Counted from the first letter of the stretch, positions 20,322 through 51,112 are shown. The stretch: 64,000 bases of DNA from Chiloscyllium plagiosum (GCF_004010195.1 NC_057731.1:13044145-13108144); one strand, 5' to 3'. Notes: generated by a model from the sequence alone, not told the origin. Made by a program: numbers and translations.

Positions 20322-21762
20322 TGACACCGCAAGGGATTCCCTGAAAGAGAAACTGCTTCAGCTACAATGTCACTTCACGTGGACCCTGCAAGTAGAGGAT
20401 GTGGAGTGGGATGATTTGCAGGAACGAATACATTACACAATTGAGGCTGACATTGTGCAATATAAAGTCATGCCTTACAATCTACTTACTTTTGTCAACT
20501 GCGTACGAGGTAAACATGAGGAGGCATTCGATAATTTGTGGGAAGCTGAGGAGATTCTGAGGAAGGATCACAAGTCGAATGTTGAAAAGTGGAGCATCAT
20601 CACCTACGGAAACGCAGCCTGGGTCTATTACCACGTGGGAGAAGTGGCAGAGGCTCAGGCCTACCTCAACAAGCTGGAGAGGATCTGCCAACAGTTCCCT
20701 GATGCCTCTCGCTTTACAGCAATGACCCCTGAAGTATACGGGGAGAAGGGTTGGTCCCTGTTGAGATTTGGCTGGAAATATTATGAAGAGGCAAATGAGT
20801 GTATTGAGAAGGCTCTGGAAGCAGATCCTGATAACATTGAGTGGAATACAGCTCACGCAACCTCTCTGTTCCGACTTAAAGAAAATATTGGAGACCCTCA
20901 GTGTCCTGAGCACTGCAAAGTAGTGAAGCAGTTACAACGGGCATTGGAACTGAACCCAAAGGACTCTCTTCTCAAGGTCACGCTGGCTCTAAGACTACAA
21001 TATTTCAAACAGGAAGAGGAATCTCACAGATTGTTAGAAGATGTGCTCCTGAATTCTCCTGATGATCCCTATTTAATTCAATATGCGGCCAAAGCTTTAA
21101 GAGAGGAAGGATCTGTTGAACAATCCTTAGAGATGTTGAAAAAGGCACTGATGTTAAGACCAAACTCTGGGCTCCTTCACCACCAGATCGGTTTATGCTA
21201 CAAAAAGAAACTGTTTACACTGAAGAAAACACCTTATAAATATAATGCTTATGAGGAAAGGAAAAAACTGATTGAACTTTGCAAATATCATTTCCAAACA
21301 GCCTATGATCATAAACCCTCACTTGTAACTGCAATCCTTGATCTGGCAGAACTCTTTGCAGAATGCAAAGATTATTCCAAAGCTGATGAGATCTACGAAA
21401 ACCAGCTCAGAAATAAAGATTGCAACCGTATAAACAGACAGTTAATTCATTGGAAATATGGATTGCACCAGTTAAAAAGGAACGGATTCTTACAGAGAGC
21501 CATTTATCACTTCAAGGAATGCCTGAATCTCAAGGTGAAGAGCAAAATGGATATTCACTGTCGAGCAAAACTGAAAGAAATTGCTGAAGAACGATTGAAT
21601 GAATATTCAAGAGACAGTGTCGCCTTTGGTATATTGGGACTATTACATCAACTGGATGGCAAGAAATCCAAAGCCATTGAATTCTTTCAGCGAGCCCTGG
21701 AGTGCGATTGTGACAATGAAGAATTTCAAAGTGCTCTCAGTGAACTAAAGGAGTCTGCATAG
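20322..21762 (+). CDS. IFIT5: IFIT (IFIT5-like) copy 1, main coding exon 2
   Basis: Acceptor tttccacctgtttcttacAG at 20321; phase-2 exon reads (x)DTARDSLKEKLLQLQCHFTW.. with IFIT signatures CHFTW, YNLL, GNAAWVYYH, EKGWSLL, LHHQIGLCY and multiple TPRs; intact to TAG; 481 aa with the usual 5-nt exon 1. Family call is firm; orthology to mammalian IFIT5 is not established. Confidence 0.95.
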
Positions 21763-21781
21763 GAAAATATATCTCTGATGT

Positions 21782-21804
21782 TTCTGGGAAATTGATTCCG
21801 GGAA
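21782..21804 (+). promoter_or_regulatory. Two GAS-consensus sites just after the IFIT copy 1 stop codon
   Basis: TTCTGGGAA (21782-21790) and TTCCGGGAA (21796-21804), created by a 14-bp tandem duplication. Confidence 0.35.
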
Positions 21805-23089
21805 ATTGATTCCCATTTTTGGTGTGTGGTTTTGAGATAAATAGTTTTAAGATTAGCTGGCAGACCCATTCCACCAGACAGAAATGGGCAGCCAGTGTAA
21901 ATAAGAAAAGGTCCTATGTACAGAGGTTTCCCAGGCTTCTCCCCATTATAAAAAGCAACAGAGCATCCCTCCTCCATTTCCGCTCACTGTGTGGGGAGGC
22001 CAGCAACATCCTGGAGGTAGCCTCCTTGTACAATTGTCCATGGAGCCAATTGGAACTGGAGGTCCATGTGCTAAAGTGAGGGACAGAGCAGAGAAGGTTA
22101 CCTACAAATCCCAATGGGCCTCCAGGAGGACCCGGATTGCTCGGCCTCTCTGCTTTTATATCTTTGACTTTGCTCCATGTTAAGGTGCCCTCTCAGTCTC
22201 TGAGACCCAACCTGGCTCCATATTGCTCAGCTCACTCAATGAGATTTCAATGCTACTGGCTCTCTGGTTAGTAAAAACCATGTCCACCTGCAATTTTAAT
22301 CTGATGGTGAGGACGCATTCAGGCAATTCTCAATTAGAACCAGAAACATTGCTAAATCTGTCCCATGACCCGTAGTATGAACTCAGGATCCCTATATGAG
22401 CCTGACGCTGGCGACCCCTAGCCCAGTATAATATCCTGACCATTCATCAGTGTCACTTTGCCATTCATGTACTCTGTCATTCTCTATTTGTTCAGGCAAT
22501 AGTAATTGTAACCATAATTTTGGGAGTGAACAACTTTTGCACTAATGATATTAACTCATTTCAGTGACTGAAACCGAAAAGATCATGGTTAATGTTGTAT
22601 TTTTGACTCTTAAAACAAATGTACCAAACATGATGACAGTGATTAGTAAACAAAATGATGATTATTGAAGAACAGTAGAAATCTAGAAGAGTTCTTTATT
22701 TACCGTCATCAGTTCTAATGAACGCACCATATGGTAACTTGTGTCATTCCTGTGATTATGTATAACAAACTATTTGCATATTTAGCAATATATTAGTCAG
22801 TATATCTACAGCACAAAACACATTCCCCTTTCCCTAAATAGAACAATTTAGATAAATTATAACCTATTTACAAATAGAATAAGAAAATTGTCCTTATTTA
22901 CAAATGTATTATCACCTTCATTAATTGCACAAGTTTCTCTGAAAGTGTAGGTGGCGTGCTGACTCAACCTAATCTGGTAATAGTGAAACTTTGCTGAGAT
23001 TTGTGCTTGTCAACTCTTTCCTGTAGATGCGATGCCTGATTTGCCAACTATCTCGTTCTTGAATCTTATTCTCACTCTTTCCTGACACT

Positions 23090-24000
23090 GCAGGAGTGTT
23101 GGAGAGTCATGAAGCACAGAAGAGGCCCCTTGGCCCAATGAGTCCATACCTCCCTATCTATGCTAATGCCACTCTCCAGCACTTGCCCCATATCCTTGAA
23201 TGTTGTGCCATTTCAAGTGTTCATCTACACATCTTTTAAAAGCTGTGAGGTTTCCCAAATCAACTGTCCTCTTAGTCAGTGTATTCCAGATTCTCAACAA
23301 CCTCTGGGTGAAAAACAAAACTTTTCCTCAGGTCCTCTCTAAACCTCCTGCCTTTCACCTTAAAATTATGCCCCTTGTTATACAGGGTCTTGGTGAGGCC
23401 ACACCTTGACTATTGTGGGCAGTTTTGGTTTCCTAGTCCGAGCAAGGGAGGGAGTCCAGTGAAGGTTCACTCGACTGATTCCTGGGATGACAGGACAGAA
23501 TATGAAGAAAGATTGGATACTATTGGAAGGATGTTGTGAATCTTGAAAGGGTTCAGAAAAGGTTTACAAGGATATTGCCAGGGTTGGAGGATTTGAGCTA
23601 TAGGGAGAGGCTGAACAGGCTGGGGCTATTTTCCCTGGAGCGTTGGAGGCTGAGGGCTGACCTTACAGAGGTTTGTAAAATTATGAGGGGCATGGATAGG
23701 GTAAATAGACAAAGTCTTTTCCCCGGGGGTAGGGGAGTCCAGAACTATTGGGCATAGGTTTAGGGTGAGAGGGGAAAGATATAAAAGAGACCTAAGGGGC
23801 ATCCTTTTTACACAGGGGGTGGTGCGTCTATGGAATGAGCTGCCAGAGGAAGTGGTGGAGGCTGGTACGATTGCAACATTTAAGAGGCATTTGGATGGGT
23901 ATATGAATAGGAAGGGTTTGGAGGGATATGGGCCAGGTGCTGGCAGGTGGGACTAGATTGGGTTGGGATATCTGGTCGGCATGGATGGGTTGGACCGAGA
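23090..24000. mobile_element. CR1/HER1 fragments (minus ~23090-23380, plus ~23380-24000)
   Basis: NLERVQKRFTRILPGLEDLSYRERLNRLGLFSLE and VVRLWNELPEEVVEAG; reverse CR1 tail upstream. Confidence 0.88.
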
Positions 24001-24009
24001 AAGAGGAAG

Positions 24010-24530
24010 AGATTGAGAACATTGGGGCGAACATGGATGTCATAGTCCTGGTGCAGGGTGTTTGCTAAGTGGTGAGGTTTCCTGAGATAATGAGGACATG
24101 CAGGGTTAGAGGTGTGAGAGTTAGGGGTGGGTGAGAGAAGATGTTACAGGTAAATGCGAGAATGACAGAGCATGAGCCTTGCTGGGAGGTGGGTGCAGTA
24201 ACAGAGATAGAGTGAGGGTGAGACAGCAAGGAGGTCATTGGCCTTTTTTACAGCACTGCTGGCTGTTTGTCCACATTCTGGGGAAGGCACTGATCGGGTG
24301 GTGACTGGTGGTATTGCCTTATCTGCTGCTCCTCCAGGAAGAGGCTGACCCACTTTCTCACCACCGGCTTAACCAGAGCCCCCAGATCCCTGTCAGAGAA
24401 TCATAGTGCCACCTTTGTCTTTCCCAGTATGTTCCCAATCTGTCCCTTGACCCATCATGGCAACTTTGGCATACCAGCTTTCATCTCGATGCATAGGGCC
24501 TTTTAAAGATGGTGTGGGCACCAGGGATAC
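24010..24530 (-). mobile_element. Harbinger Myb/SANT-like remnant
   Basis: Minus strand reads FSDRDLGALVKPVVRK...VKKANDL. Confidence 0.4.
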
Positions 24531-24980
24531 AATTAGAAAAACTCCCTCCAGAAAACTCAACACAAACTGCATTTAATCAACAAAAAGAAAAGATTCAACT
24601 CAGAGTAAGGTAAGGAATGGTTGGAGACTGGGGATAGTCCATTGCTTGCCTTCTTCTTCAGATGGAAAATAGACTGGGGAAGTGGAGGAAAACCTGGGAA
24701 CAGCTCTTTCCCACTTTGGCTAGAAAGTAGGATACCACTATCACAGACCACTGAGATTAACTCTAAATGCCAAACATCCATTCCTCTCTGGGATCTGTGA
24801 ACCACCTTGAACTCTTATTGATTGGATCCTTTTCTTGCCTGTTTAGCTCATACATTCCACATCTAAACTACTCATACCTAAACTACTGCTTCTTCATAAA
24901 CATAGTAAGCATATGCGACTACCTGTCTTAGACATTTGTGTCTCCTGAACCCCATACTTACCGCAATGATTGCCACCCAT

Positions 24981-25260
24981 GGGGCGGTACGGTGGCTCAG
25001 TGGTTAGCACTGCTGCCTCACAGCCGCCACACACCCGGGTTTGATCCCTGCCTCGGGTGACTGTGTGTGTGGAGTTTGCACATTCTCCCTGTCTCTGTGT
25101 GAGTTTTCTCTGGGTGCTCTGGTTTCCTCCCAAAATGCAAAGATGTGCAGGTCAGGCGAATCGGCCATGCTAAATTGTACATAATGTTAGGTGCATTGGT
25201 CTGGGTTGGTTGCTCTTTGGAGGTTCGGTGTGGCCTTGTTGGGCTGAAGGGAATCTAATC
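24981..25260 (+). mobile_element. HE1 SINE
   Basis: tRNA head, core, aatctaatc tail. Confidence 0.9.
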
Positions 25261-25689
25261 TTGTAAGGTGAACTTGGGCTGCTGATTGACTCTGCTTATA
25301 TGTTCAAGTTTTTCACCAGATACATTTCCTCAAATGGGAATTAAACAAGGATAAACTCTTTATTCACTGGATAAAATAAATATTCATAAAATGGGAAAAA
25401 CTGTTTTATACTCAGTTTCACTTTTTCAGAAAAAGCATCAAATACAGAAAGACATAATAAACAGTATTTGATTATCTCTGCCTAAAGCCATTTTTTAATC
25501 ATGAGTCCATTTGCAAACAGTTAATTTGTTAGTTTAGAGGGGACACTTAATGCACTGATTACCAATTCATTAAATTCACTTTTTTTTTCAATAAATTATT
25601 CTTCTGCTTTAACATTATTTGCAAACTGAGTTTCAATTTTTCCTTCACTTAGATGATGATTGATTAAACCAATTTATAACAGACATATA

Positions 25690-25790
25690 AAAGCAAAATA
25701 CTGTGGATGCTGGAAATCTGAAACAAACAACAGTTAGAAGAAACTCAGCAGGTCTGGCAGCATCTGTTCAGAGAGAAACAGAGTTATTGC
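25690..25790 (-). mobile_element. Old PLE pLTR-derived short repeat
   Basis: atactgtggatgctggaaatctgaaac..aactcagcaggtctggcagcatctg; related copies at ~45900 and ~56290. Confidence 0.7.
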
Positions 25791-25809
25791 TTTATGTCCG
25801 ATATGACAG

Positions 25810-26130
25810 GTGGGATGGTGCCCCAGTGGGGGGCTGCCTCACAGAGCCAGGGACCTGGATTTGACTCTATCCCTGTGAGACTGCCTGTGTGGAGTTTGCA
25901 CACTGCTCATGTGTGTCTGGGTTTCCTTCCACAGCACAAAGATGTGCAGGTTAGGTGGTTTGGCCATGCTAAATTGTCCATCGTGTCCTGGATTGTGTAG
26001 GCTAGGTGGATTAATAATGGTACATGTGGGGTTATGGGGGTAGGGTAGGGGGCTGGGTCAGCATGGGATGCCCTTCAGAGGGTTGGTATGGACTCAATGG
26101 GCTTCCAGACCATAGGGAATCTGTGACCTA
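25810..26130 (+). mobile_element. Degenerate HE1 SINE
   Basis: Core aaagatgtgcaggttaggtgg..tggccatgctaaattg. Confidence 0.8.
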
Positions 26131-26649
26131 TGACTTGTGCTCAGGTCACCATCATTCCCTTTTAGATATTTTCACACAACCTGTTCAGAGACATTATGAT
26201 ACATGTTTAGGACTTGAGCCTGGACCTTCTGGCCAGAGATAGGTACACTACCATAGTGCCGTAAAGAGTTTTTTCAGAAAACTTTCCTTTTGTTCTCTGT
26301 CTGTTATAGTTACCTGTTCATGAAGTTGATAAACAGTGCCACCTTGTGACTAGACAGAATTACATTATCATTAGAAGACAATACAGTTGCAAAAACTCAC
26401 TTGGCTATTTCAAGCGGCAAGTAAAAACAATCCTGAATAAAGGGCTTTAATCAAAACCATTGTTTCAGGGTGATCACATTACAATAGTCATACCAGTGAC
26501 TGCACTTCACTCAGTGGTGACCTGACACTATGAAAGATGCCTCATATAAATGTAATTGTGTTTTTTATTTAATTGAATAAATAGCAGTACAAACAGAAAA
26601 AAAGGTAACAGATAAGCTGAGCTTGATAAAAACAGTGCAATAAAAGATG

Positions 26650-27200
26650 AAGTTTAAAAGTTGACAATGCTCTGGAGTTACCTGGTCTGGATGGATTGCA
26701 TATCAAGCTGATGAGGGAAGTGAGCTTGGAGACAGTGGAGACACTTTCTGAACCCTCCAACTCACCTTACACAGGAGAGTGGCTCCAGAGAACTGGTGGA
26801 TTAGAAATGTCACAGCAATGTTCCAAAAAAGGAGAGAATGATAAACTTCACAACGATCCAGCAGCCAGCCTAACCTCAGTGTCTGTGAAACTTTACAGAT
26901 AATAATTTTCACTCAGAAAAATATATCAATAAGCGACAGACAATATGGATTTATTAAAGGAAAACATGTCTGACCAACTTGATTGATTAAAGGACAGGAG
27001 CACTTAAAGATGGACTTTTAATAGGTGCTTGCTACAAATCACATAGATTTGTTCGCAAATTTGAAAGAGCAAGATTGATGAAACGGTGGCTGTTTGGCTG
27101 CTAAATTGACTAGACAACGGAGCAAAGTGGTGACTGTTGTTCTTCAGACTGAAACCCAATGTATTGTTGAGTGGAGTCTGGGACCCTTGCACCGATGAAC
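26650..27200 (+). mobile_element. Ancient CR1 RT remnant, part of the duplicated IFIT flank
   Basis: Degenerate PG.DGLH.KL.RE, NVT.MF.KG and CLTNL motifs; homologous pieces at ~40870, ~42410 and ~43580. Confidence 0.6.
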
Positions 27201-28362
27201 ACAATAATGTAATTGTAAACCTTTGAAGAACTGAGAAGAGGAGAAATGAGAGTCGATGAATTCAATACCAAATAAAATTTAGAGAGATATATAAAGAGAG
27301 AGAAAGAACAATTGATTTAAAGGAGAATAAAAAAAAAACAGAAGAGAACCATTTATAGTAACAGGAAATGTTTGACATATTTGAAATCTCCAATAACATT
27401 CCCCAAAGGAACATGACTCCAATAATTATAACTGGTCACTTCCTTGATGAGACAATGAGCAATCAATACCAATTCTCACTTTATTAAAACTGCACTTACA
27501 CTGTCAACTATTAGATTTGATTTTCTGTGGCAAATTTAATTTGCAAGTGCAATAAATTAGAAACCCGTTGTGAGGTTAAGTGTACGATACTGTTTTCAAA
27601 AATACTTGAACCAATTCTGAAAATTTGCCATTCACAGAGTGTATCTCACTGTTTATAATTTCAAACACCATTTTCTTTAATAAATTCCATCCAAAGGTTA
27701 CAATACCAGTGGGTATCAACAACCACACTGGGAAAAGTAACAGGATCATACAGAGAATGGAGTAAAAGTCGGGAGTTATTGAGAGAAGTGCCTTCTTTAA
27801 ATCTTCGTTGTAACCCATCAAATTGATGTTAAACATGTAAGGAAATTGGTAAACTGGAGACTTTTTCTTCTTTTATGCATTAAACCCAAATTTTCATTCT
27901 TAAATTTAAACAGCAGACAAAGTGGGGAGAGATTTTTCTGTGTATGATAGCCTGCAATGTAATAGCTGACTCATCTGAACCTGACAAGGCACAGACCATA
28001 GAGGTTAGTGGTCATCAAACTCATTTCAAACATGATATTGGATTGAGTGTTCCTGTATCATGCATGAAATCCCACTTCTCATTTAATCTCATGAAGTGGA
28101 TGGAGCATCTCCAAAAATCAAAGAGATGCCAAAACTGCCCTTGTGGCTTTCCAGAAAAGGAATACATTGTCCATAATCAGCAGGATTTCTTGATGAGCAA
28201 AAAGACTTTTTTTTTACACTCTGAACCTCCTTCCCTGAGTTCACAGAGAGCAAATGTAGCTTCCAGAAACAAATACTCTGAAATATTCCTAAATTTCAGC
28301 AAATGTTTATCAGAATATAATCTTAGGTTATAATATAATGTGCCTAAACCTGTATAGACCTA

Positions 28363-28372
28363 GGGAAATTCC
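28363..28372 (+). promoter_or_regulatory. NF-kB consensus site
   Basis: GGGAAATTCC about 2.2 kb upstream of the copy 2 TATA box; could occur by chance. Confidence 0.3.
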
Positions 28373-28514
28373 TCATTCTTTAATATGAGAAGCAAGCAAA
28401 AATAATTACAGAAGTTGTCCAAAATGGGTGTCATTTCGCAAGTGGCAAGTCAAAGGATTGGTATTCGGGCATGGTCATTGTACCAAAATCTGATGGTTCT
28501 ATCAGAATATGTCA

Positions 28515-28640
28515 AAAAGTGTGGTGCTGGAAAAGCACAGCTGGCCAAGCAGCATCTGAGGAGTAGGAAAGTCAACTTTTCAAGCATAAACTCTTCATCA
28601 GGAACACATTTCAACTCTGTTCTCCAGCATCTGCAGACCT
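28515..28640. mobile_element. PLE pLTR fold-back fragment
   Basis: gtgtggtgctggaaaagcacagc..ttcatcaggaa followed by an inverted acatttcaactctgttctccagcatctgcag. Confidence 0.75.
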
Positions 28641-30515: not shown

Positions 30516-30591
30516 TGTTTCAGTTTTCATCTCTTGAATAGAATTCTGAAAAGTTACCCGAAAAAAACTAAAAGATATCGAGGGTATAAAA
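30516..30591 (+). promoter_or_regulatory. IFIT copy 2 promoter: ISRE-like element and TATA box
   Basis: GTTTCAGTTTTC (30517-30528; reverse GAAAACTGAAAC) and TATAAAA (30585-30591), about 100 nt before the ATG. Confidence 0.65.
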
Positions 30592-30684
30592 TCTCTTTGA
30601 GCAGCTTAACTCACCTAGTTTTGTGCTTGCAGTTAATCAGTGAACAGAGGTGGAAGACACAGAAGCCTTCCCTTTATTCAGATC

Positions 30685-30689
30685 ATGTG
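30685..30689 (+). CDS. IFIT5: IFIT copy 2 exon 1 coding part (ATG TG)
   Basis: gatcATGTG|gtaaga; joining to 31036 gives MCDTARES in frame; matches the canonical IFIT two-exon layout; 346-nt intron. Confidence 0.75.
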
Positions 30690-31035
30690 GTAAGAGAGAT
30701 TCTCATTGTAAATAACAGGGATAGTAATAGTATCTGCTGTAGCTCTTTGGAAACACTCCTTTTTCAGAATCTGTGGGTTGTGGCAGCACAAACACACTGT
30801 TACTGTTGGAGAAATTAACTTTCACATGTGGTGTTACACCAGGGCCTCGAAGACGCTGGTTTCAGCTGCTTGAGGCCTCAGGTTTTTCCCTCAGCCCTTC
30901 TTGTGCCAATGCTGAAGAGAATGTAAGGCTGGATGATAGAGGTACCTGGGATTGTGGTGTTAAAGTGCATTTGTGTCGAAAATGCCCATGAATGATTAGA
31001 AAAAAACAATAAATATTTCCACCTGTTTCTTACAG

Positions 31036-32476
31036 TGACACCGCAAGGGAGTCCCTGAAAGAGAAACTGCTTCAGCTACAATGTCACTTCACGTGGACCC
31101 TGCAAGTAGAGGATGTGGAGTGGGATGATTTGCAGGAACGATTAAATTACACAATTGAGGCTGACATTGTGCAATATAAAGTCATGCCTTACAATCTACT
31201 TACTTTTGTCAACTGCGTACGAGGTAAACATGAGGAGGCATTCGATAATTTGTGGGAAGCTGAGGAGATTCTGAGGAAGGATCACAAGTCGAATGTTGAA
31301 AAGTGGAGCATCGTCACTTACGGAAACGCAGCCTGGGTCTATTACCACGTGGGAGAAGTGGCAGAGGCTCAGGCCTACCTCAACAAGCTGGAGAGGATCT
31401 GCCAACAGTTCCCTGATGCCTCTCGCTTTACAGCAATGACCCCTGAAGTATACGGGGAGAAGGGTTGGTCCCTGTTGAGATTTGGCTGGAAATATTATGA
31501 AGAGGCAAATGAGTGTATTGAGAAGGCTCTGGAAGCAGATCCTGATAACATTGAGTGGAATACAGCTCACGCAACCTCTCTGTTCCGACTTAAAGGAAAT
31601 ATTGGAGTCTCTCAGTGTCCTGAGCACTGCAAAGTAGTGAAACAATTACAACGGGCATTGGAACTGAACCCAAAGGATTCTTTTCTCAAGGTCACGCTGG
31701 CTCTAAGACTACAATATTTCAAACAGGAAGAGGAATCTCACAGATTGTTAGAAGATGTGCTCCTGAATTCTCCTGGTGATCCCTATTTAATTCAATATGC
31801 GGCCAAAGCTTTAAGAAAGGAAGGATCTGTTGAACAATCCCTAGAGATGTTGAAAAAGGTACTGATGGAAAAACCAAACTCTGGACTCCTTCACCACCAG
31901 ATCGGTTTATGCTACAAAAAGAAACTGTTTACACTGAAGAAAACATCTTATAAATATAACACTTATGAGGAAAGGAAAAAACTGATTGAACTTTGCAAAT
32001 ACCATTTTCAAACAGCTTATGATCATAAACCATCACTTATTTTTGCAATGCTTGATCTGGCAGAAATTTTACAGGAATGTAAAGAATATTCCAAGATCGA
32101 TGACATGTATGAGGACCTGATCAGAAACAACAGCTGCAACCATTTGAATAGACAGTTATTACTTTGGAATTATGGATTGTACCAACTGTATGTGAAGAGA
32201 TCCCAGCCCAATGCTATTGTTTATTTTAAAGACTGCTTAAAAATCAGAGTGAAAAGAAGCCAGTTTGTGAAATGCCAAGCAAAACTGAAAGAAATTGCTG
32301 AAGATCGATTGAACGAGTATTCAAGAGACAGTGTTGCCTTTGGCATATTGGGATTTTTGCACCAATTGGATGGCAAGAAATCCGAAGCAATTGGATACTT
32401 TCAGAGAGCCCTGGAATGTGATCGCAACAATGAGGAATTTCAGAATGCTCTCCAAGATCTAAAGGAGGCTGCATAA
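31036..32476 (+). CDS. IFIT5: IFIT (IFIT5-like) copy 2, main coding exon 2
   Basis: Same acceptor (AG ending 31035), CHFTW and TPR motifs, intact to TAA; 481 aa predicted. Confidence 0.95.
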
Positions 32477-33399
32477 AATCTGTCTTTGATTCACTGGAAT
32501 ATGAATCTGCATTTGTAAGAAATAGTTCAAACCTAATTCGAAAATGCTTGACATATTGACCAGTCAAGATTTTCCAGATTTCGGGCAGTGAGTGAAGAGG
32601 AATTGTGGGGGAGGCATTGGAAAATAGTGATGCCCTCACTAATAAATCCCTCCTCCATCTTACATGTGGGCTAACTGACATATGTGGGCAACCACCCCCT
32701 TACCAATTTGAATTTAAATGTGTTGCTCTTCAAGGCACCTCTCATGTTGAGAACCCCTCACAATCCCCTATCTACCTCAGCAGTGCACAGCTCTCCCAGT
32801 GAGGCTGGGCAGGCTCTGGGGCTATCGGATCTCTGACCGGCCTGACAGCACTGACACCATTGTGGATGACAAACTGGGGTGCCACTGATTAGAAGGCACC
32901 TCCAAGAAAGTAACTGAATGGATTCCTCTGCTGCTGAGTAAGGAGTTGTGGTCTCCCTTTTTGATCCTGATGCTGAGGGTCTGTGACAGAGACTTAAACC
33001 CCCCATCTTTGTAATTACTTTAGTTCACTATTGATTTTGTGTTTCCATTTGCTAAGGTGACACTGATTATAGCCTTTGATTTTTAAGTTAACAGGTTTTG
33101 TACTTAATTAATTAACTAATTGCAATGACTGAGGCTGAAATAGTCACAGTTAAAAACTGTAGTTGAGTGCTGTAAAGGCATGTTATTGAATTAACCTGAC
33201 ATTGTAGATCATGCTCATAGGATTTAAATCATTGTTACCAACAGGTAAATAAGACTGATTTAATTCTAACCCTAACTTGAAAGCTTTGGGGATGAATATC
33301 TTTACTCCCAAGTACTCACTTGGATCCAGTAAGAGGTAAGTACATTTCTTTGAATAAACACTTCATAACAGCACAACCTATTGATTTTTAAGCCAACCC

Positions 33400-37557: not shown

Positions 37558-37592
<35 letters not shown>

Positions 37593-42025: not shown

Positions 42026-42312
42026 CGGTGGCACAGTGGTTAGCATTGCTGCCTCACAGTGCCAGAGACCCAGGTTCAATTCCCACCTCAGGCGACTGTC
42101 TGTGTGGAGTTTGCACATTCTCCCCGGGTCTGCGTGGGTTTCCTTCGGGTGCTCCGGTTTCCTCCCAAAATTGTGCAGGTCAGGTGAATTGGCCATGCTA
42201 AATTGCCCGTAGTGTTAGGTGAAGGGCTAAATGTCGGGGAATGGGTCTGGGTGGGTTGATGTGGACTTGATGGGCCTAAGGGCCAATTTTCACACTGTAA
42301 GTAATCTAATCT
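42026..42312 (+). mobile_element. HE1 SINE
   Basis: tRNA head, core, taatctaatcta tail. Confidence 0.9.
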
Positions 42313-42499
42313 AAAATATGTAAAGATTGTTCAGATTTAAACTGCTTTAGTGGCTATGGATGTGTATAAACATTTTTTTATGAATAAAGTATATTTTTGG
42401 AAAAAAATCACCTTCGATATGAGAGTGGTTCCAGAGAACTAGTATATTGCAAGTGTCACAGCAATTTCAAAAAGGCGGGAATGATAAACCTGGAAAAGG

Positions 42500-43578: not shown

Positions 43579-44513
43579 TTACAATGAACCAGCAGGCAGC
43601 CTAACCTCAGAACTGGTGACATTTTAGAGATATCAATTTGAGAAAATAATAACTTTCATTGGGACAATTAGGTGACAGATGACATGGCGTTATTAAAGTA
43701 AATCATGTTTGACTAACTTGTTTGAAGTAACAGATGACATTGCAAAAGGCAAAATAATTGATTTTCTGCAGATAGATCTCCAACAGGTGCTTCCGAAAGA
43801 AATAGACAGTTTTGTTTGCAAATTTGAAACTGTGGGATTAAAGAGACACTGGCTACAAAATGGACCAGACAATAATAAGGATGGTGAACTGTTGCTTTTG
43901 AGACTGAAGCCTAATATATTGTTTGAATGGAATCGGGGATCTTGGAATTATTTAGAACAATAGTGTACCTCCAGAACCCTAAAGGATTAAAAAATAAATG
44001 GAGAAAGTTCTGAGAAACAGGACGAACTAGAATGAGTGAATTCGCTGTCACATCAAGTTTAGTAAGGAAAAGTGAAACAAAGATTGATTTATAGTAGATA
44101 AAATGAAAATGAAAGTAACATTTAGAAACTCTAAACATTTGCATATATACACTTTTAAATTCCCCAATACTGTGCTGCCCGAAGGAACAAATTCCACACT
44201 TGTAATTGTTAACTTTCTTGATGAGTGAGCGTGATTAGGAGTTATCACCAATTATCCCGTTGTGAAAATTGTACTTACATTATTAGCTACCAGACTTAAT
44301 TTTCTGTGGCAAATTTGATGGGCCATTAATTTGCAAATGCAGCAAATTAGGAAATCACTAGAAGTTATATCCAAAATACCCATTTCCACAAATAGTTCAG
44401 CAGTTTCTGGCAATTTGCAATTGACAGGGGTACAACATCCTGTTTATAATTTAATGAAACCATTACAATAAATCTGGGTTTCAGAAATCACAATAGGGCA
44501 AATAGTGATTAGA

Positions 44514-44747
44514 AGTTAGTGAGCAGTGCTGTTGCTGGAAAAGTTAGAGTCAATAAAGTGTGACGCTGGAAAAAGCCCAGCAGGTCAAGCAGCATCCGAG
44601 GAGCAAGAAAGTCAATGTTTTATGCTTAATCCTTCATCAGGACTTGCAAGAGAATTGTTGTTTTAGGCTTAAACCCGAAACGTTGACTCTTTTGCTCTTC
44701 GGATGCTGCCTGAACTGCTGTGCTCTTTCCAGCACGGCACTATATCA
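44514..44747. mobile_element. Older PLE pLTR fold-back insertion
   Basis: 14-bp TSD aaatagtgattaga at 44500-44513 and 44748-44761. Confidence 0.8.
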
Positions 44748-45469
44748 AAATAGTGATTAGAGGGTGGAATAAAACATGGAAAGCATTGGCGGTAAATGTC
44801 TTATTTAAGACTGAAGACTGCAGAAGCTCGCTGATGTGGAATATACATGAACTATCATTAGAGCTCACCATCATTATCTAAGGCTGTTATCAATAACAAT
44901 ACTGAAACTGAAGAGATGGGAGATATTGTAAATGCCACCTATTTGAGCCTGGCAGGAAGCTGGTGCATGCTTGCTCTGTTGTGAGGATGCTGTCATGGCT
45001 GCAGCAGGAAGCAGATTTCAGCAAGCACGCCCTTATTGAAACTCACTGTTCCTTACTGATGCTGAGGAAGATGAATTGCTCCCTGGAGACTCTGGTTGGA
45101 TGTTGCTTCATGATGAGAAACCTATTCACACAGCTCTTCCTCTTCATGCTCCTTGTCATCTCTGTTCAGTCTCCTTGTCATGTTGCTGTCCTAGGGGAAT
45201 ATATTCTGCTGCACCCGTCGCCGAGAGTTATGTCAAATCAATGCAGATTTGCCACATGATTCCCTGTTGCACCAACATCCATCAAAAATTAGTCAGCAGC
45301 TCACTGGAAAGTAATTGATCCTCTTTTGAACCATGTTTGGGGTTACAGTCCTTTCTGCCACTGTGCAAGGTTTAAGAGATGATGTTAGCTGAAGAATGGA
45401 GTTCTGACATGCCAGTGCTAAGGTGAAATCTTAGGCATTAGGAACAGAGATTTGTTTCTAACTCAGAAT

Positions 45470-45630
45470 GGTGAGTGGCTGAGAAGGGAGCTGGCAGGTA
45501 ATAGTGTTTCCATGTATCAGCTAACCTTGTCCTTCTTGGTGAAAATTGTTCGGAGTTTGGAAAGTGCTGGCGAAGGAACTTTAGTGAATTTCTTCAGTCT
45601 ATCTTGCTGGTGCTACGCAATGCTACTACT
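45470..45630 (-). mobile_element. LINE family B fragment
   Basis: Similar to the reverse complement of 29900-30070. Confidence 0.55.
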
Positions 45631-47019
45631 TTACATTACTAAAATGCTTTACGTTGCCTTGTTTAATTTTGAACTTGAAATATCTTCATTTTGACAGCTG
45701 CCAATTTCCCATTAATGACGTCCTTAACTAGTTTAGTTTCCAGTCCACAGGAGCTAGATCCATGACTAAAATACCTGAAATAGAATTTCACCCAGTTGTG
45801 CAATCACTTTTGATTCTTCTTTGTCTCTTCCAATAATTGTTTTAAACTTCCTTACACTATCATCACAATAATCCAAGATACTCTCTTCCTTCAAGATGCT
45901 TGAATTGCTGGAGAAACTCAGCTGGTCTGGCAGCATCTGTGGAGAGAGAAGCAGGGTTAATGTTTTTTGAGATCAGTGACCCTTCGTCATAATGCTTGAA
46001 TTGCCCAGATCCAGACTGAGTGATCCTGTGAGAAATGCATTAACTTACGGCACATCTCTTGCATGTGTTTTAAGATTCTTCACCCTTCTAGCTCCTTCCT
46101 CTGCTTCTTCTGATTCTTATTGTTCTATTCTTTTTGCATCTTTCTGAAGTTTGCTGACAAATCACTCTTCTACATCCTACTTACTATTTGGAATTTACAG
46201 TAGGCAACAGCTCCTTTCCTTACCTCAAACCAAATGTATTCAGTCTTTGAATCCATTACATTGGCATCTCTCTGTAGAATAGTAACCTGGAATAGCTTTG
46301 ATTAATATTGCCATCCCCACCCTCCAAACACTTTGCTCTTATTTCATTTTCCTTCTCTAATCCCTCCTTGAATTCATTGATGACGGAAATGTTTAGTTCC
46401 CACACCTACTCATGGCTCAGACAGGGCTCTGTATAGTCACTACATCATAACTCCATGTGGAAACTTTCTCTTGTAACTCACCAATTTTAGATGTAATGTT
46501 CCTTACATGAGCATGTTTACATTCTGACACAGCTTTGTTTTGAACCTTCATTTCATGTCATTTCCTATTATTCTTTGCTCTGTTACTGTTTGTCTCCATT
46601 ACCTTCTGCACATCTTCTCCCTCTCTTTGACTGTTACTCCCTGGTACCTCTCTGACTGTCTAATTATTCGAGTTCTCCTCTATGCTGTCATTATTTGCCC
46701 TATCATGATGTTGAATCAAATTCTGTTCAATTACGGATTTTTACATCAGGTCAATAGATTCCCTCTCAGAATCCTATTGAAACTTATCAGCATTTTAAAC
46801 ATTTCAGGAAGACCTTTCCTTAACTTTTCACACTCCAGGTGGTTGTCAGGGATGCCTGCGTATCATTATCCACAGGCACACGTGTGGCAATGGGAGCCAA
46901 TGTTGGAAATGTGATGCTTTGAGTGGAGGTTGTGTTTCTGCAGAAGTGGGCTCTGTGATTCTCCTCAATCACACCGCATGTGGTGTATGTGGCTTATAGC
47001 CCATGGAAAGTCTTTCATT

Positions 47020-47393
47020 GTTCACTCTCCATCGTAATAACAAAGCAATTAATTCTTTATGGAAGTCCAGTTTTTGTTGCTGTGCAACAGGTGAGAATAT
47101 CAACAGAGCGAACATGCAGCAAGTTTCACATAACAAGAAGAAAATAATAAGCCCAGTTGGTGGCTGGGGGCGAGTTGATATTTTGTATTTGAGCTGGGCT
47201 TCAACACATTTTCCCCAGATTCTCAGCAACGTGCTGCTTTAAATTTCCGTTCTCGATTTCAATTGTGAAAAATCTGAGTACTGTGTAAGTTGCGAGGAGT
47301 ATGTGAAGAGCTAAGCAGACCTGGTTCTACCTTTGCTGCTGATTAAGGGAAGCAGAAGTGAAGCCGCAGCTGACCGTCTTTACTCTGATCATC
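47020..47393 (+). promoter_or_regulatory. IFIT copy 3 promoter/5' UTR module, paralogous to 30340-30684 and 52310-52940
   Basis: Shared blocks ttaattcttt.tg.aagtc, ataaca.aa.aaaa.aata, gagttgatattttgtatt and ctttactctgatc. Confidence 0.65.
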
Positions 47394-47398
47394 ATGAA
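47394..47398 (+). CDS. IFIT5: IFIT copy 3 exon 1 coding part (ATG AA)
   Basis: atcATGAA|gtaagagagatt, homologous to the copy 2 donor (gtaagagagatt); joining to 49672 gives MNDTAKDS in frame; 2273-nt intron. Confidence 0.7.
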
Positions 47399-47514
47399 GT
47401 AAGAGAGATTTTTATGTGAAAATAGCAGGTGCGGTGAAGTGTCAGCTGTAGCTCTGTGGCAACACCTTTCTCAGATTAATCTGTAGGATTTGGGGAAGGA
47501 TTGGTCTCTGTCAT

Positions 47515-48745
47515 TGACTCATAGAGTTCGGCCCAACTTGGCCATGCCGCCCAGTTTTTACAATTAATCTAGTCCCATTTGGCTGCATTTGGTCCATTTC
47601 CCTCCATACCTATCCAAGCCTTGTACCTGTCCAAATGTTTCTTCAATAACAAAGTTGTACTTGCCTCCATGACTACCTCTGTTCCAAATACTCAACACCC
47701 ACTGTGCGAAAAAAAGTTGCCCATCTGGACCCTTTTGTATCCCTCCCTTTTAACTTATGTCCTCGAGTTTTAGACTCCCCTACCATGAGGAAAAGCTGTT
47801 GGCTATCTATGCCTCTCATGATTTTATAGACCTCTATTAGGTCACCCCTTAGTCTCCTACGCTCCAAGGAGAAAAGTCCCAGCGTATCCAACCTCTCTTT
47901 ATAACTGAAACCTTCCAATCCAGATAGCATGCTAGTAAATCTTTTCTGCACTTTTTCTAGTTTAACAATATCCTCACTATAGTAGGGTGACCAGAACTGC
48001 ATGCAGTACTCCAACTATGCCTTACCAAGGTCTTGTACAGCTGCAACAAGACATCCTCAAACCTATACTCAATGCTCTGACTGACGAAAGCCAGAATGCT
48101 AAAAGCCTTCTTTGACCTGTGACTCCACTTTCAAGGACACTTTCACAATGAACCAGTACCCCTAGATCTCCTTGTTGTATAACACTTCCCATGACCCTAC
48201 ATCGACTCAATAAATCCTGCCTTGGTTTGACCTATCAAAATGCAACACCTTGATTTCCCACGCACAAATCCATGCTGACTATCCCAAATGTGTTCTTGTC
48301 TCTCCAAATGCCTGTAGATCCTGTTTCTCAGAATCCGGTCTCATGATTTACCCACCATGGACATTAGGTTCACCAGCCTGTGGTTCCCAGGCATTTCCCT
48401 ACAGCCTTCCTTAAATAATGACACAACATTAGCCACCCTCCAATCTTCAGGCTTTGCTTCTGTGGCTGTCGATGATAGAAATATTTTTGCTAGGAGCTCC
48501 ACAACTTCATCTGTAATCTCCCACAAAGTCCCACTTCATCAGGTCCTGGGTATTTATCGACCTTAAAGCTTTTTAAGTTTTCCAGCACCTCCTCTTCTGT
48601 AATGTGGTTCTCTTCACTACATCACAGTTTATTTCCCCAAGTTCCCGAGCATCCGTGTCGTCTGTTAACCCTCCTGATATATCTTTTAAGTGTATTCTGA
48701 CACCCTGTTCACTTCTCATAGAATTCACTTGATCCCAGCTGCCTA
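47515..48745 (-). mobile_element. CR1/HER1 LINE in the predicted copy 3 intron
   Basis: Minus ORFs EYCMQFWSPYYSEDIVKLEKVQKRF and PEDWRVANVVSLFKEG. Confidence 0.9.
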
Positions 48746-48754
48746 TACATATTA

Positions 48755-48830
48755 TGCTGCCTGACCTGCTGTGCTTTTCCAGCAACACACTCTCATCTCT
48801 GATCTCCAGCATCTGCAAACATCACTGTCT
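48755..48830 (+). mobile_element. Short PLE pLTR insertion
   Basis: gctgcctgacctgctgtgcttttccagcaacac..; flanked by a near-direct repeat cctat(a/t)catattat. Confidence 0.75.
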
Positions 48831-48959
48831 CCTATTCATATTATATGCCTCCTTCGTTTACTTGAGCAAAGGCATCAAAAACTCTAGTTATCTAGGGTTG
48901 CCTACTCCTAACAGCCTTACCTTTCACTCCATCAGGAACATGCTGCCTCTGAACCTCCT

Positions 48960-49270
48960 CTGAGATTTGGCTGGAAATATTATGAAGGGAAAATGAGGTC
49001 TGCAGATGCTGGAGATCAGAGATGGAAATGTGTTGCTGGAGAAGCGCAGCAGGTCAGGCAGCATCTAGGGAACAGAAGAATCGACGTTTCGGGCATTAGG
49101 GAACAGATTCTTCTGTTCCCTAGATGCTGCCTGACCTGCTGCGCTTCTCCAGCAACACATTTCCAATATTATGAAGGGGAAATCAATGCATTGAGAAGGC
49201 GCTGGAGGAAGATCCTGATAATATTGAGTGGAATACAGCTCTTGCAACCTCACTGTTTCAAATTAATGAA
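48960..49270 (+). pseudogene. Relic IFIT exon-2 fragment
   Basis: tgagatttggctggaaatattatgaa[insert]..tgcattgagaaggcgctggaggaagatcctgataatattgagtggaatacagctcttgcaacctcactgttt aligns to LRFGWKYYE..CIEKALE.DPDNIEWNTA.ATSLF of the intact copies (e.g. 20762-20870). Confidence 0.9.
48990..49164. mobile_element. PLE pLTR fold-back inserted in the IFIT relic
   Basis: 14-bp TSD aatattatgaaggg at 48976-48989 and 49165-49178; perfect ~59-bp inverted arms. Confidence 0.92.
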
Positions 49271-49671
49271 TCCAATATGGGGAGCACTGGGAGTGGACTG
49301 CCCTGTAGGATCTGCTAACTTTCAAATTATAAATTAACTCAGAGCTTCAAGCAGCCTCGTATCAACTGCTCAAACCTTCAAGATCTTCATTGAAACCTTC
49401 CTGTGTTAATTTTCAGGAAGGCTGTGATTCTGTTTAACAGGATCATAAGGTTCAAATTCATGATGATTATTTTCAGCCTTTTCCCTGTCCACTAATATGT
49501 ACTGTCTGTTCATTTTGTTCTCTCCGTATGTTTCAGATTCTGGTTGTTATTTGAGTTTTTGAGACACTTATTGGCTTTGCTGAGATGCAGGTTGCCCAGT
49601 GTGAAATAGATTGCTAATTTCTTGCTGAAGGTTGAATTAAAACAAAAAATCTTTCCACCTGTTTCTTACAG

Positions 49672-51112
49672 TGACACCGCAAAGGATTCCCTGAAAGAGA
49701 AACTGCTTCAGCTACAATGTCACTTCACATGGACCCTGCAAGTAGAGGATGTGGAGTGGGATGATTTGCAGGAACGATTAAATTACACAATTGAGGCTGA
49801 CATTGTGCAATATAAAGTCATGCCTTACAATCTACTTACTTTTGTCAACTGTGTACGAGGTAAACATGAGGAGGCATTCAATCATTTGTGGGAAGCTCAG
49901 GAGATTCTGAGGAAGGATCACAAGTCGAATGTTGAAAAGTGGAGCATCGTCACTTACGGAAACGCAGCCTGGGTCTATTACCACGTGGGAGAAGTGGTAG
50001 AGGCTCAGGCCTACCTCAACAAGCTGGAGAGGATCTGCCAACAGTTCCCTGATGCCTCTCGCTTTACAGCAATGACCCCTGAAGTATACGGGGAGAAGGG
50101 TTGGTCCCTGTTGAGATTTGGCTGGAAATATTATGAAGAGGCAAATGAGTGTATTGAGAAGGCTCTGGAAGCAGATCCTGATAACATTGAGTGGAATACA
50201 GCTCACGCAACCTCTCTGTTCCGACTTAAAGGAAATATTGGAGTCCCTCAGTGTCCTGAGCACTGCAAAGTAGTGAAACAGTTACAACGGGCATTGGAAC
50301 TGAACCCAAAGGACTCTTTTCTCAAGGTCACGCTGGCTCTAAGACTACAATATTTCAAACAGGAAGAGGAATCTCACAGATTGTTAGAAGATGTGCTCCT
50401 GAATTCTCCTGATGATCCCTATTTAATTCAACATGCGGCCAAAGCTTTAAGAAAGGAAGGATCTGTTGAACGATCCCTAGAGATGTTGAAAAAGGCACTC
50501 ATATTAAGACCAAACTCTGGACTCCTTCACCACCAGATCGGTTTATGCTACAAAAAGAAACTGTTTACACTGAAGAAAACACCTTATAAATATAATGCTT
50601 ATGAGGAAAGGAAAAAACTGATTGAACTTTGCAAATATCATTTCCAAACAGCATTTGATCAGAAACCATCACTTATTTTTGCAATGCTTGATTTGATAGA
50701 AATCCTTAAAGAAACTAAAGAATATTCCAAGATTGATGAGATCTACGAAAACATGATCAGAAATAAAGATTGCAACTACATAAATAGACACTTAATATTT
50801 GGGAACTATGGAATATACCAGCTATATGCGAAAAGATCACAGCCTAATGCTATTCGTTATTTTAAAGAATGCTTAAAAATCAAGGCATGGGGAGGGCTGT
50901 CTATGGAATGCCGAGCAGCATTAGAAGGAATCGCTGAAGATCGATTGGACGAATATTCAAGAGACAGTGTTGCCTTTGGCATATTGGGATTTTTGCACCA
51001 ATTGGATGGCAAGAAATCCGAAGCCATTGGATACTTTCAGAGAGCCCTGGAGTGTGATCGCTACAATGAGGAATTTCAGAATGCACTCCAGGATCTAAAG
51101 GAGGCTGCATAA
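49672..51112 (+). CDS. IFIT5: IFIT (IFIT5-like) copy 3, main coding exon 2
   Basis: Same acceptor (AG ending 49671), CHFTW and TPR motifs, intact to TAA; the first 17 codons of the ORF track entry are intron read-through. Confidence 0.95.

Follow-up and report, generated by a model that had tools for sequence, protein, structure and literature searches.

Gene conversion between duplicated IFIT genes has been described in mammals, where IFIT1 and IFIT1B underwent it recurrently (Daugherty et al., 2016; PMC4887208). In the accessible part of that paper, the split of the two genes is dated near the origin of placentals, their 5' two-thirds are homogenised and the 3' third is divergent, silent sites included, the breakpoint lies in the pivot between subdomains II and III, and true orthology is legible only in the 3' part. 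The three IFIT copies described here, from the bamboo shark Chiloscyllium plagiosum, resemble the mammalian pair in homogenisation, in the position of the breakpoint and in the legibility of orthology. Front and back of the protein are 96% and 46% identical in cat IFIT1 and IFIT1B (PMC4887208, accessible part) and 96% and 63% identical in shark copies 1 and 2 (92/145 residues at the back; 48% in the patch defined below). The systems differ in that the shark duplication is separate, its copies nesting among shark genes, in that three partners are involved instead of two, and in the IFIT5-like length of the shark proteins, which include a capping helix. For the mammalian 3' region the same part of the paper gives no further breakpoint, whereas the shark tails, that of copy 1 excepted, hint at a second tract. 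Different specificities of cat IFIT1 and IFIT1B were shown there in yeast. The conversion mechanism itself is already published for the mammalian genes, and the shark case was reached independently.

Lineage-specific IFIT expansions in non-mammalian vertebrates share with this locus a tandem same-strand cluster, and they have two-exon genes whose first exon contributes ATG plus 2 nt, and ISRE-like promoter elements, as is predicted for some of the copies here (PMC3688568; PMC4065003; accessible parts). The word "conversion" occurs in neither main text, and the elephant shark is the only cartilaginous fish named in the accessible part of PMC3688568. Among the best literature matches listed, which largely fall outside subscription papers, none concerned conversion in shark IFITs.

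Three tandem IFIT genes in Chiloscyllium plagiosum

The window analysed, a stretch of 64,000 nt (GCF_004010195.1 NC_057731.1:13044145-13108144) to which the survey of copies was confined, contains three intact IFIT exon-2 frames in tandem on the plus strand. Each follows a CAG acceptor, begins in phase 2 and comprises 479 full codons and a stop, and the three align without gaps. Codon 1 denotes the first full exon-2 codon throughout; residues 337-416 of a preliminary description of this DNA are codons 335-414 here.

20322..21762, + strand: copy 1, coding part of IFIT exon 2, phase 2, 479 codons and stop; translation equals the exon-2 part of XP_043569073
31036..32476, + strand: copy 2, coding part of IFIT exon 2; translation equals the exon-2 part of XP_043569074
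49672..51112, + strand: copy 3, coding part of IFIT exon 2; translation equals the exon-2 part of XP_043569075

All three are IFIT family members and IFIT5-like. The homology is full-length over about 480 residues of TPR helices, with matches of copy 1 to IFIT5 (E 4e-97) and of copy 2 to IFIT1 (E 1e-97) and TPR Pfam matches in 3/3 copies; together with the IFIT fold of the copy 1 model, this bears out the preliminary identification. Membership of the mammalian IFIT1/IFIT1B orthogroup was rejected: the copies branch inside a shark-only clade (in a tree without a mammalian row) and match human IFITs at about 35-37% of residues.

For copies 2 and 3 a predicted exon 1 fits the two-exon IFIT layout. 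ISRE-like motifs lie near the candidate promoters of copies 1 and 2, the one of copy 3 being degenerate.

30517..30691, + strand: probable promoter and exon 1 of copy 2; ISRE-like motif at 30517-30528, TATA-like motif at 30585, ATG plus 2 nt at 30685-30689, GT donor
47394..47400, + strand: probable end of exon 1 of copy 3; ATG plus 2 nt and GT donor, homologous to those of copy 2, with a degenerate ISRE upstream
15896..15988, + strand: tentative promoter and exon 1 of copy 1, weak; ISRE-like motif at 15896; the ATG at 15967 is the only one in frame with the donor at 15987

The exon 1 predicted for copy 2 yields Met-Cys-Asp, the residues with which the H. ocellatum orthologue P0002 begins. Database models use first exons other than these candidates, that of copy 3 taking 33292-33335, and a second candidate first exon of copy 1 lies at 10457.

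The predicted model of copy 1 (pLDDT 89.5) has the full-length fold and helix order of human IFIT5 (4hoq, 3zgq) and IFIT1 (5w5h, 5udi), with TM scores of 0.89 to IFIT5 (4hoq), 0.70 to IFIT1 and 0.53 to IFIT2. Following the helix naming in the accessible part of 10.1101/152850, helices 283-301 and 307-330 form the pivot and 335-402 are TPR7-8; a C-terminal capping helix, which IFIT1 lacks according to the same source, is predicted at 466-478. Judged from the alignment, the pocket for the RNA 5' end appears conserved in part. W144, Y154, R184, Y250, K257, R260, H287 and Q288 of human IFIT5/IFIT1 are retained in the shark copies, and several IFIT5 triphosphate contacts are changed in all three (E33 to D, T37 to R, Q41 to T, K48 to Q, K150 to R, R253 to Q). 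Given these changes, the ligand of the shark proteins is not readable from sequence. Nineteen of the 26 mapped RNA-contact or mutagenesis positions of IFIT5/IFIT1 fall at codons 1-307, and the two IFIT5 RNA contacts mapped inside TPR8, H374 and Q377, do not vary from copy to copy.

Conversion of the 5' two-thirds of exon 2

Residue identity between copies 1 and 2 is 319/334 over codons 1-334, 38/80 over codons 335-414 and 54/65 thereafter; for copies 1 and 3 the same segments give 317/334, 41/80 and 50/65, and for copies 2 and 3 they give 316/334, 51/80 and 60/65. The counts previously given for copies 1 and 2 (about 15 differences in some 334, 38/80 matches between 21325-21564 and 32039-32278, no indels) were reproduced. 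The rise in identity past the patch, also reported then, holds for amino acids, without indels, but silent sites of copy 1 against copy 2 or 3 stay diverged. Near-identity had been placed from about 20 nt before the acceptor, between diverged introns and promoters, and indeed the 20 nt upstream of the acceptor are identical in all three copies, with divergence beyond.

The step is present at silent sites. At codons 1-320 silent differences number 7/293, 7/294 and 6/293 in the three pairs, against 14/37, 10/41 and 13/50 at codons 335-414 (Fisher p 5e-9 to 8e-6); for copies 1 and 2 this is 7/293 before codon 321 and 14/37 in the patch. With only silent sites permuted, the observed best breakpoint was matched in 0/10,000 permutations for each of the three pairs. 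Uniform dS had been named beforehand as evidence against conversion; dS was 0.04-0.05 in the front and 0.6-1.0 in the patch. Third-position GC displayed no consistent step between segments.

20302..21285, + strand: copy 1 converted region, consisting of 20 intron nt and codons 1-321 (subdomains I and II and most of the pivot), dS 0.04-0.05
31016..31999, + strand: copy 2 converted region, in which codons 275-279 retain copy-2 residues common to its orthologues
49652..50652, + strand: copy 3 converted region, its last 131 nt identical to copy 1

The silent breakpoint for copies 1 and 2 falls before codon 322, and breakpoints in the window lie at codons 322-341, with one silent-only estimate at 371. 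Across all three copies, 233 nt are identical (20649-20881 in copy 1 coordinates). The 131 nt that end the converted region of copy 3 (50522-50652) equal copy 1 21172-21302; codons 298-315 were replaced here, a segment that the copy-3 orthologues of two other species still share. Since the overwritten segment carried 8/38 differences, moderate divergence was no bar to conversion here. A recent duplication of the whole unit was ruled out by promoters and introns that are diverged to within about 20-45 nt of the acceptor. The flanks of copies 2 and 3 mismatch at 26% in 9 BLAST-chosen blocks, where shuffled sequence gives 33-35% with the same aligner, and so provide no usable neutral calibration. 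An mRNA-templated route is disfavoured because the tract takes in intron bases and sits at the 5' end.

When three species of bamboo shark are compared, the grouping in the front follows species for the most part, and in the back it follows the paralogues. Eight hemiscylliid sequences have 7 species- or genus-diagnostic columns before codon 275 (24, 27, 116, 190, 205, 231, 255) and 0 paralogue-diagnostic ones, and after codon 334 this is reversed. The protein tree of codons 335-479 contains three paralogue clades (support 99-100/99). That of codons 1-296 groups the C. punctatum copies (86/91) and the Chiloscyllium copies (88/92), without resolving the three window copies or the two Hemiscyllium copies; copy 2 of C. 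punctatum has a truncated model that carries a low-quality flag. By AU test a copy-3 clade is rejected for the front (p 9e-5), as is a C. plagiosum clade for the back (p 5e-78); in the front a copy-2 clade is not rejected (p 0.09), and copy 1 gives p 0.04. The 5' and 3' trees, whose congruence would have spoken against the earlier proposal, are thus discordant at the protein level. No whale-shark or zebra-shark protein belonging to the clade of these copies, nor a copy 1 of H. ocellatum, turned up among 11 matches to the 3' region, all of them already in the set, and 5 short-protein matches, in a collection clustered at 90% and incomplete, where a missing match does not mean absence. With the silent step and the discordant trees, gene conversion of the 5' two-thirds of exon 2 is well supported, and the proposal that it keeps old duplicates alike stands.

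The 3' third and other elasmobranchs

21325..21564, + strand: copy 1 paralogue-specific segment, codons 335-414 (TPR7, TPR8 and the start of helix 21), from paralogue and orthologue differences
32039..32278, + strand: copy 2 paralogue-specific segment, codons 335-414, from orthologue comparison
50675..50914, + strand: copy 3 paralogue-specific segment, codons 335-414, from orthologue comparison
21565..21762, + strand: copy 1 tail, from the remainder of helix 21 through TPR9 to the capping helix, unconverted and constrained; dS about 0.5, dN/dS 0.18-0.24 against copies 2 and 3
32279..32491, + strand: copy 2 tail plus 15 nt past the stop, common with copy 3 (50915-51127)

In the patch, copy 1 differs from its C. 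punctatum orthologue at 7/80 residues and from copies 2 and 3 at 39-42/80; copy 2 differs from its H. ocellatum orthologue at 3/80, and copy 3 from its two orthologues at 4/80 and 6/80. Orthologue differences amount to 14/240 (5.8%) in the patch against 56/887 (6.3%) in the front (p 0.88). Pairwise counts give patch dN/dS values of 0.36, 0.61 and 0.37, the bootstrap interval excluding 1 in 2/3 pairs and extending to 1.26 for copies 1 and 3, and silent sites are more diverged than replacement sites. These values do not sustain the earlier view of a hypervariable patch under diversifying selection, nor is it an 80-residue variable island, the whole 3' third of copy 1 being unconverted. The patch is an old, paralogue-fixed segment that escaped conversion. 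Intrinsically it evolves about 1.4-1.5 times faster than the front (87 nearest cross-species pairs). Relative-rate tests found faster patch change in the three copies in 12/12 comparisons, which are non-independent (2/12 with p<0.05, uncorrected). Paralogues differ here at 36-52% of amino acids, at least as much as from distant sharks, and their stems in the patch tree measure 0.36-0.46, where the tips of other galeomorphs measure 0.05-0.24.

Against copies 2 and 3, the copy 1 tail has silent differences at 13/54 and 12/50 codons (patch versus tail p 0.17 and 1.0); it appears conserved because of protein constraint, not conversion. Copies 2 and 3 have 5/52 silent differences at codons 426-479 against 13/50 in the patch (p 0.04 with a boundary picked post hoc; p 0.08 for the whole tail), and a second, older conversion tract between them is possible on these counts. 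The Mustelus proteins 048 and 046 differ at 20/80 patch and 2/65 tail residues (p 1.6e-4), where a catshark-Mustelus control gives 18/80 and 13/65; the 046 model is short by about 115 residues and may represent a pseudogene. This alignment, like that of copies 2 and 3, suggests a tail tract.

The family survey used 123 of 139 fetched proteins, with isoforms, near-duplicates, unnamed and non-elasmobranch rows excluded; P0030, P0060 and P0124, truncated or mis-modelled, were also dropped. Pairs with at most 20% front difference, which are non-independent, were tested. Seven of 193 within-species pairs passed Bonferroni correction when tested against a patch evolving twice as fast (three from C. 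plagiosum, one from C. punctatum, two from Mustelus and one from Pristiophorus), and H. ocellatum just missed it (3.0e-4 against 2.6e-4). At p<0.01, a like front with a diverged patch occurred in 0/110 ray pairs and 0/43 Scyliorhinus pairs; some Hypanus pairs are instead alike in the patch (best p 1e-3 of 117). Breakpoints fall at 292-299 in C. punctatum and the strongest Pristiophorus pair. The boundary thus lies at about codons 292-341, shifting by some 40 codons, with the pivot at 283-334; nt 907 of human IFIT1 aligns near shark codon 300. Placed on the predicted model, the conversion boundary falls within the pivot helices and the patch coincides with TPR7-8.

Explanations for the conversion boundary

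The best explanation, to which we assign a probability of roughly 0.7, is an old tandem duplication followed by repeated 5' conversion, with selection sparing TPR7-8, as in mammalian IFIT1/IFIT1B but of separate origin. Duplication in the bamboo-shark lineage would have given three IFIT5-like antiviral genes, copy 1 probably splitting off before copies 2 and 3 and all of them before Hemiscyllium and Chiloscyllium separated. DNA-level conversion has repeatedly homogenised exon 2 between the intron edge and the pivot helices and went on doing so after the species split, with paralogue history retained in the 3' third. There, purifying selection acts strongly on TPR9 and the capping helix, and TPR7-8, once diverged between paralogues, have remained nearly fixed between species. 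The converted part would be a shared scaffold binding the RNA 5' end, and its swapping would be harmless. TPR7-8 may hold copy-specific differences in the distal RNA tunnel, the closing motion or a partner or antagonist surface, and conversions overwriting them would be purged, leaving TPR7-8 as a specificity module under selection. Because TPR9 is constrained and in some pairs apparently converted too, the specificity candidate narrows from the whole third to TPR7-8.

Conversion might be real and its boundary nevertheless passive, the 3' third having drifted below the similarity that conversion needs, or the 5' end being a hot spot, with nearly neutral differences in TPR7-8. A patch dN/dS below 1, the family-wide faster change of this part, the wholly unconverted 3' third of copy 1, the wandering boundary and copy loss or damage in two species would all suit this account. 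We consider it unlikely, given that mammals and separate shark duplications have the boundary at one and the same structural hinge, that identity recovers in the tail past the patch in Mustelus and, less clearly, in copies 2 and 3, that the diverged copy-3 segment was overwritten, and that each patch is nearly fixed between species. Selection could also act on the front, if hetero-oligomers needed matching N-terminal surfaces, as Daugherty et al. suggested for IFIT1/IFIT1B. The converted region does include the part domain-swapped in IFIT2 (accessible parts of PMC4887208 and 10.1101/152850), and TPR9 of the copies has invariant hydrophobic residues where IFIT1 has L457/Y460/L464; this is improbable, however, as the copy 1 model is nearest to monomeric IFIT5 and has the capping helix missing in IFIT1, and such selection alone leaves the resistance of the 3' third to conversion unexplained.

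Ongoing virus-driven diversification of a hypervariable 80-residue patch, the version first proposed, would agree with the large paralogue differences, with the long paralogue stems, which fit an early burst, and with the dN/dS interval of copies 1 and 3. It is very improbable when orthologues differ at only 3-7/80 positions, no faster than in the front, and patch silent sites have diverged more than replacement sites. That the near-identical fronts are an assembly collapse or consensus of one sequence is scarcely credible, although the window contains gaps (1,213 N). The fronts differ at 26-28/1,002 nt, with 12-14 private changes per copy; two other species repeat the pattern in their gene sets, each with shared changes of its own, which argues against collapse; and 13 runs from 4 studies under one organism label, one possibly the source sample, contain 0.80-0.94 of sampled 31-mers of 20000-22000.

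Under the preferred reading of conversion bounded by selection on TPR7-8, the locus bears on what in the C-terminal third sets the specificities of IFIT1 and IFIT1B and why conversion halts at the pivot. An independent shark case with the same hinge suggests that protein architecture and selection fix the boundary, instead of a feature of one mammalian locus. Tentatively, and with the odds somewhat against it, the pivot boundary may be a convergent IFIT rule by which conversion shares subdomains I-II and selection guards TPR7-8 whenever duplicates are kept with different jobs, with independent origins in placental mammals and in three or four duplications among sharks (bamboo sharks, Mustelus and, in Pristiophorus, one or two sets). 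If so, TPR7-8 would be a portable IFIT specificity module and the shark copies natural chimeras with three specificities on one scaffold. Tests of shark IFIT orthology and selection need the 3' third. Three proteins about 95% identical in front form a clean comparison set; codon 361, which is Q, L and M in the three copies, aligns with human L366 and chimpanzee M366, a tested determinant of antiviral activity.

Three tandem IFIT genes and their surroundings

Three IFIT reading frames, copies 1 to 3, lie on one strand of the window. Codon 1 is the first complete codon of exon 2.

20322-21762, plus strand: copy 1, IFIT exon 2 (CAG acceptor, phase 2)
30685-30689, plus strand: copy 2, probable exon 1 (ATG plus two nucleotides), homologous to copy 3 exon 1
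31036-32476, plus strand: copy 2, IFIT exon 2 (CAG acceptor, phase 2)
47394-47398, plus strand: copy 3, probable exon 1 (ATG plus two nucleotides), homologous to copy 2 exon 1
49672-51112, plus strand: copy 3, IFIT exon 2 (CAG acceptor, phase 2)

The exon-2 translations are 100% identical to the exon-2 parts of the annotated C. plagiosum proteins XP_043569073, XP_043569074 and XP_043569075, and human IFIT5 and IFIT1 were matched over their full length (E about 1e-97). Met-Cys-Asp, predicted from copy 2 exon 1, is the start of the Hemiscyllium orthologue; exon 1 of copy 1 can be placed only tentatively. In two species, the database models of copy 3 use a different exon 1 at 33292-33335, which lies 16 kb upstream and has a consensus phase-2 donor.

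Weak homology was seen between the blocks directly downstream of copies 1 and 2 (22389-22592 and 32954-33153), the former containing an ISRE-like motif at 22570. The copy 3 intron holds a decayed IFIT exon-2 fragment (48960-49312; about codons 146-200, 85% identity over 107 nt, one base missing), interrupted at about 48993-49165 by a short repeat element with some 15 nt duplicated at its ends. The promoter/exon-1 block that copies 2 and 3 have in common occurs once more at 52274-53031, with an ISRE-like motif at 52511 and a repeat inserted at 52637-52902. It has no ATG at the exon-1 position and no exon 2 downstream within the window, and may be what is left of a fourth gene copy. An apparent exon 1 of a further IFIT gene, with exon 2 past the window end, is seen at 63372-63423: an ISRE-like motif precedes a favourable start context, ATG with two more nucleotides and a consensus donor (63413-63423). 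Assembly gaps lie upstream of the array (8794-9544, 14209-14670), and the window is rich in short interspersed repeats and LINE fragments with reverse-transcriptase remnants (e.g. 3872-4940, 57019-57779).

Gene conversion across the front of exon 2

The three second exons align without indels. Pairs 1/2, 1/3 and 2/3 share 319, 317 and 316 of 334 residues in the front, 38, 41 and 51 of 80 in the patch (codons 335-414) and 54, 50 and 60 of 65 in the tail (codons 415-479). The counts of the preliminary description for pair 1/2 are thereby reproduced. Its statements on the flanks held as well: three-way identity extends from 20 nt before the acceptor, and the diverged promoters and introns are alignable solely in scattered blocks. 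A stretch of 233 nt is free of differences across all copies.

Constraint on the protein instead of conversion as the cause of the similar fronts is ruled out by the silent sites, at which dS is strongly non-uniform along the exon, namely 0.04-0.05 at codons 1-334 and 0.6-1.0 at codons 335-414. Among codons for the same amino acid, silent differences before codon 321 number 7/293, 7/294 and 6/293 for the three pairs; in the patch the corresponding values are 14/37, 10/41 and 13/50 (p 5e-9 to 8e-6), and permutation reached the observed step in 0 of 10,000 cases. The breakpoint is best placed at codons 322, 371 and 322 by silent sites and at 332, 327 and 341 by all sites. Collapse in the assembly was another candidate cause, and it is made very unlikely by the related proteins of C. 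punctatum (n = 3, one truncated) and Hemiscyllium ocellatum (n = 2), which show the same pattern, more than the collapse of a single assembly could account for. Before codon 275, seven columns are diagnostic of a species or genus, being shared among its copies, and no column is diagnostic of a paralogue, whereas columns after codon 334 mark paralogues. The trees are discordant. Codons 335-479 resolve each of the three paralogues as a clade (99-100/99); copies 2 and 3 are sisters (99/98), and the three clades are joined with modest support (80/88). Codons 1-296 instead unite the copies of C. punctatum (86/91) and those of Chiloscyllium (88/92) and leave the remainder unresolved. By AU tests, a copy-3 clade is rejected for the front (p 9e-5), as is a C. 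plagiosum clade for the back (p 5e-78); in the front, a copy-1 clade was weakly rejected (p 0.04) and a copy-2 clade was not (p 0.09). Gene conversion of the front among the copies, as originally proposed, is thus very likely, and species-wise fronts with paralogue-wise backs imply that it continued after the species split. Its boundary shifts: copy-3 orthologues of both other species share a distinct segment at codons 298-315, a segment spanned by 131 nt over which C. plagiosum copy 3 equals copy 1.

The few differences within the converted region cluster at codons 187-192 (copy 1: 20881-20898), a low-confidence model loop matching the TPR4 'lid' of IFIT1, and at codons 275-279 (21145-21159), a short copy-2-specific stretch. 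Human residue 193 in the lid is reported to be under positive selection.

The patch as an old TPR7-8 module

The copy 1 model (pLDDT 89.5; TM 0.89 to IFIT5, 0.70 to IFIT1, 0.53 to IFIT2) gives the following elements, with helix naming as in the accessible part of 10.1101/152850.

Codons 283-301 and 307-330: pivot helices, the two long helices between subdomains II and III
Codons 335-363: TPR7
Codons 369-402: TPR8
Codons 408-427: helix 21
Codons 432-461: TPR9
Codons 466-478: capping helix

By these helix positions, the conversion boundary falls within the pivot and the patch corresponds to TPR7-8. The patch had been described as hypervariable and under diversifying selection, which was not borne out. 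Between orthologues it differs at 7/80, 3/80 and 4/80 residues and is no faster than the front (pooled 14/240 versus 56/887, p 0.88), and between paralogues its dN/dS is 0.36, 0.61 and 0.37 (bootstrap intervals 0.07-0.78, 0.28-1.26 and 0.18-0.72). The sequences point instead to an old, paralogue-fixed module that escapes conversion. Family-wide, the patch/front rate is about 1.4-1.5x (87 nearest cross-species pairs); among the window copies it is 8-12x. Long paralogue stems in the patch tree and relative-rate counts, which lean to a faster patch in 12/12 non-independent comparisons (p<0.05 in 2/12), are suggestive of a possible early burst of patch change in the paralogues. The rise in identity after the patch holds for amino acids but not for the silent sites of copy 1, the tail of which is as diverged as the patch (13/54, 12/50); with a dN/dS near 0.2, its higher identity reflects constraint.

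We mapped 26 RNA-contact or mutagenesis positions of IFIT5 and IFIT1, listed from the available parts of PMC9677429 and 10.1101/152850. Nineteen fall within codons 1-307 and another two within 331-334, before the patch begins. Both RNA contacts in TPR8 are invariant across copies; the equivalents of F339, K415 and K426 vary. Several IFIT5 triphosphate contacts are altered in all three copies, so that the ligand cannot be inferred from IFIT5. Codon 361 (Q, L and M in copies 1-3) aligns with human L366/chimpanzee M366, a residue that does not contact RNA but, jointly with residue 364, determines activity against alphaviruses (PMC12543323). The correspondence is a lead that may be due to chance.

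Relation to mammalian IFIT1/IFIT1B and recurrence in elasmobranchs

Sharks and mammals split more than 400 million years ago, and the bamboo-shark case is an independent instance of a pattern already published for mammalian IFIT1/IFIT1B. There, according to the available text of Daugherty et al. (2016; PMC4887208), the 5' two-thirds underwent recurrent conversion with a breakpoint in the pivot, orthology is readable solely in the 3' part, and the cat proteins are 96% identical in the front yet differ in specificity. In PMC4887208 the mammalian 3' segment is taken from nt 907 of human IFIT1 onwards, a position that aligns near shark codon 300. The word 'shark' is absent from the accessible main text of that paper, as is 'conversion' from the accessible text of two surveys of non-mammalian IFITs (PMC3688568, PMC4065003), and no paper on gene conversion in shark IFITs was found among the top literature-search results. 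The interest of the shark case lies in the convergent boundary position and in a narrowing of the likely specificity module. The mosaic of near-identical fronts and diverged patches is real, and conversion of the front is very likely; for the full account, including selection that keeps TPR7-8 apart between copies, we estimate a probability of roughly two in three.

Among 193 within-species pairs with a front difference of at most 20% (protein-level counts, collection clustered at 90%), seven had a more than twofold faster patch after Bonferroni correction (C. plagiosum 3, C. punctatum 1, Mustelus 2, Pristiophorus 1); H. ocellatum narrowly missed the threshold, and 12 pairs had p<0.01. In the back tree the Mustelus copies group by species (98/97), as do the Pristiophorus copies of the bamboo-shark copies' clade (98/96), so these are separate duplications. 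The strongest Pristiophorus pair (breakpoint 292-299) belongs to a different IFIT clade with about 50% identity to copy 1. Breakpoint estimates for Mustelus are wide (271-309, 174-314), and the Mustelus pair 048/046, with differences at 2/176 front, 20/80 patch and 2/65 tail residues, may include a pseudogene model. None of 110 ray pairs and none of 43 Scyliorhinus pairs reached p<0.01 for a faster patch; the pattern is not general in elasmobranchs. Pairs among four proteins of the ray Hypanus sabinus (P0062, P0068, P0107, P0117) have the opposite mosaic, with about 13% front difference and 1-2/80 in TPR7-8, not significant after correction. Among the models of related proteins, P0124, P0011, P0060 and P0007 are odd or damaged: C. 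punctatum copy 2 stops at codon 345 and carries a low-quality flag, Mustelus XP_078079046 (046) lacks about codons 203-270, and two models bear unrelated N-terminal sequence.
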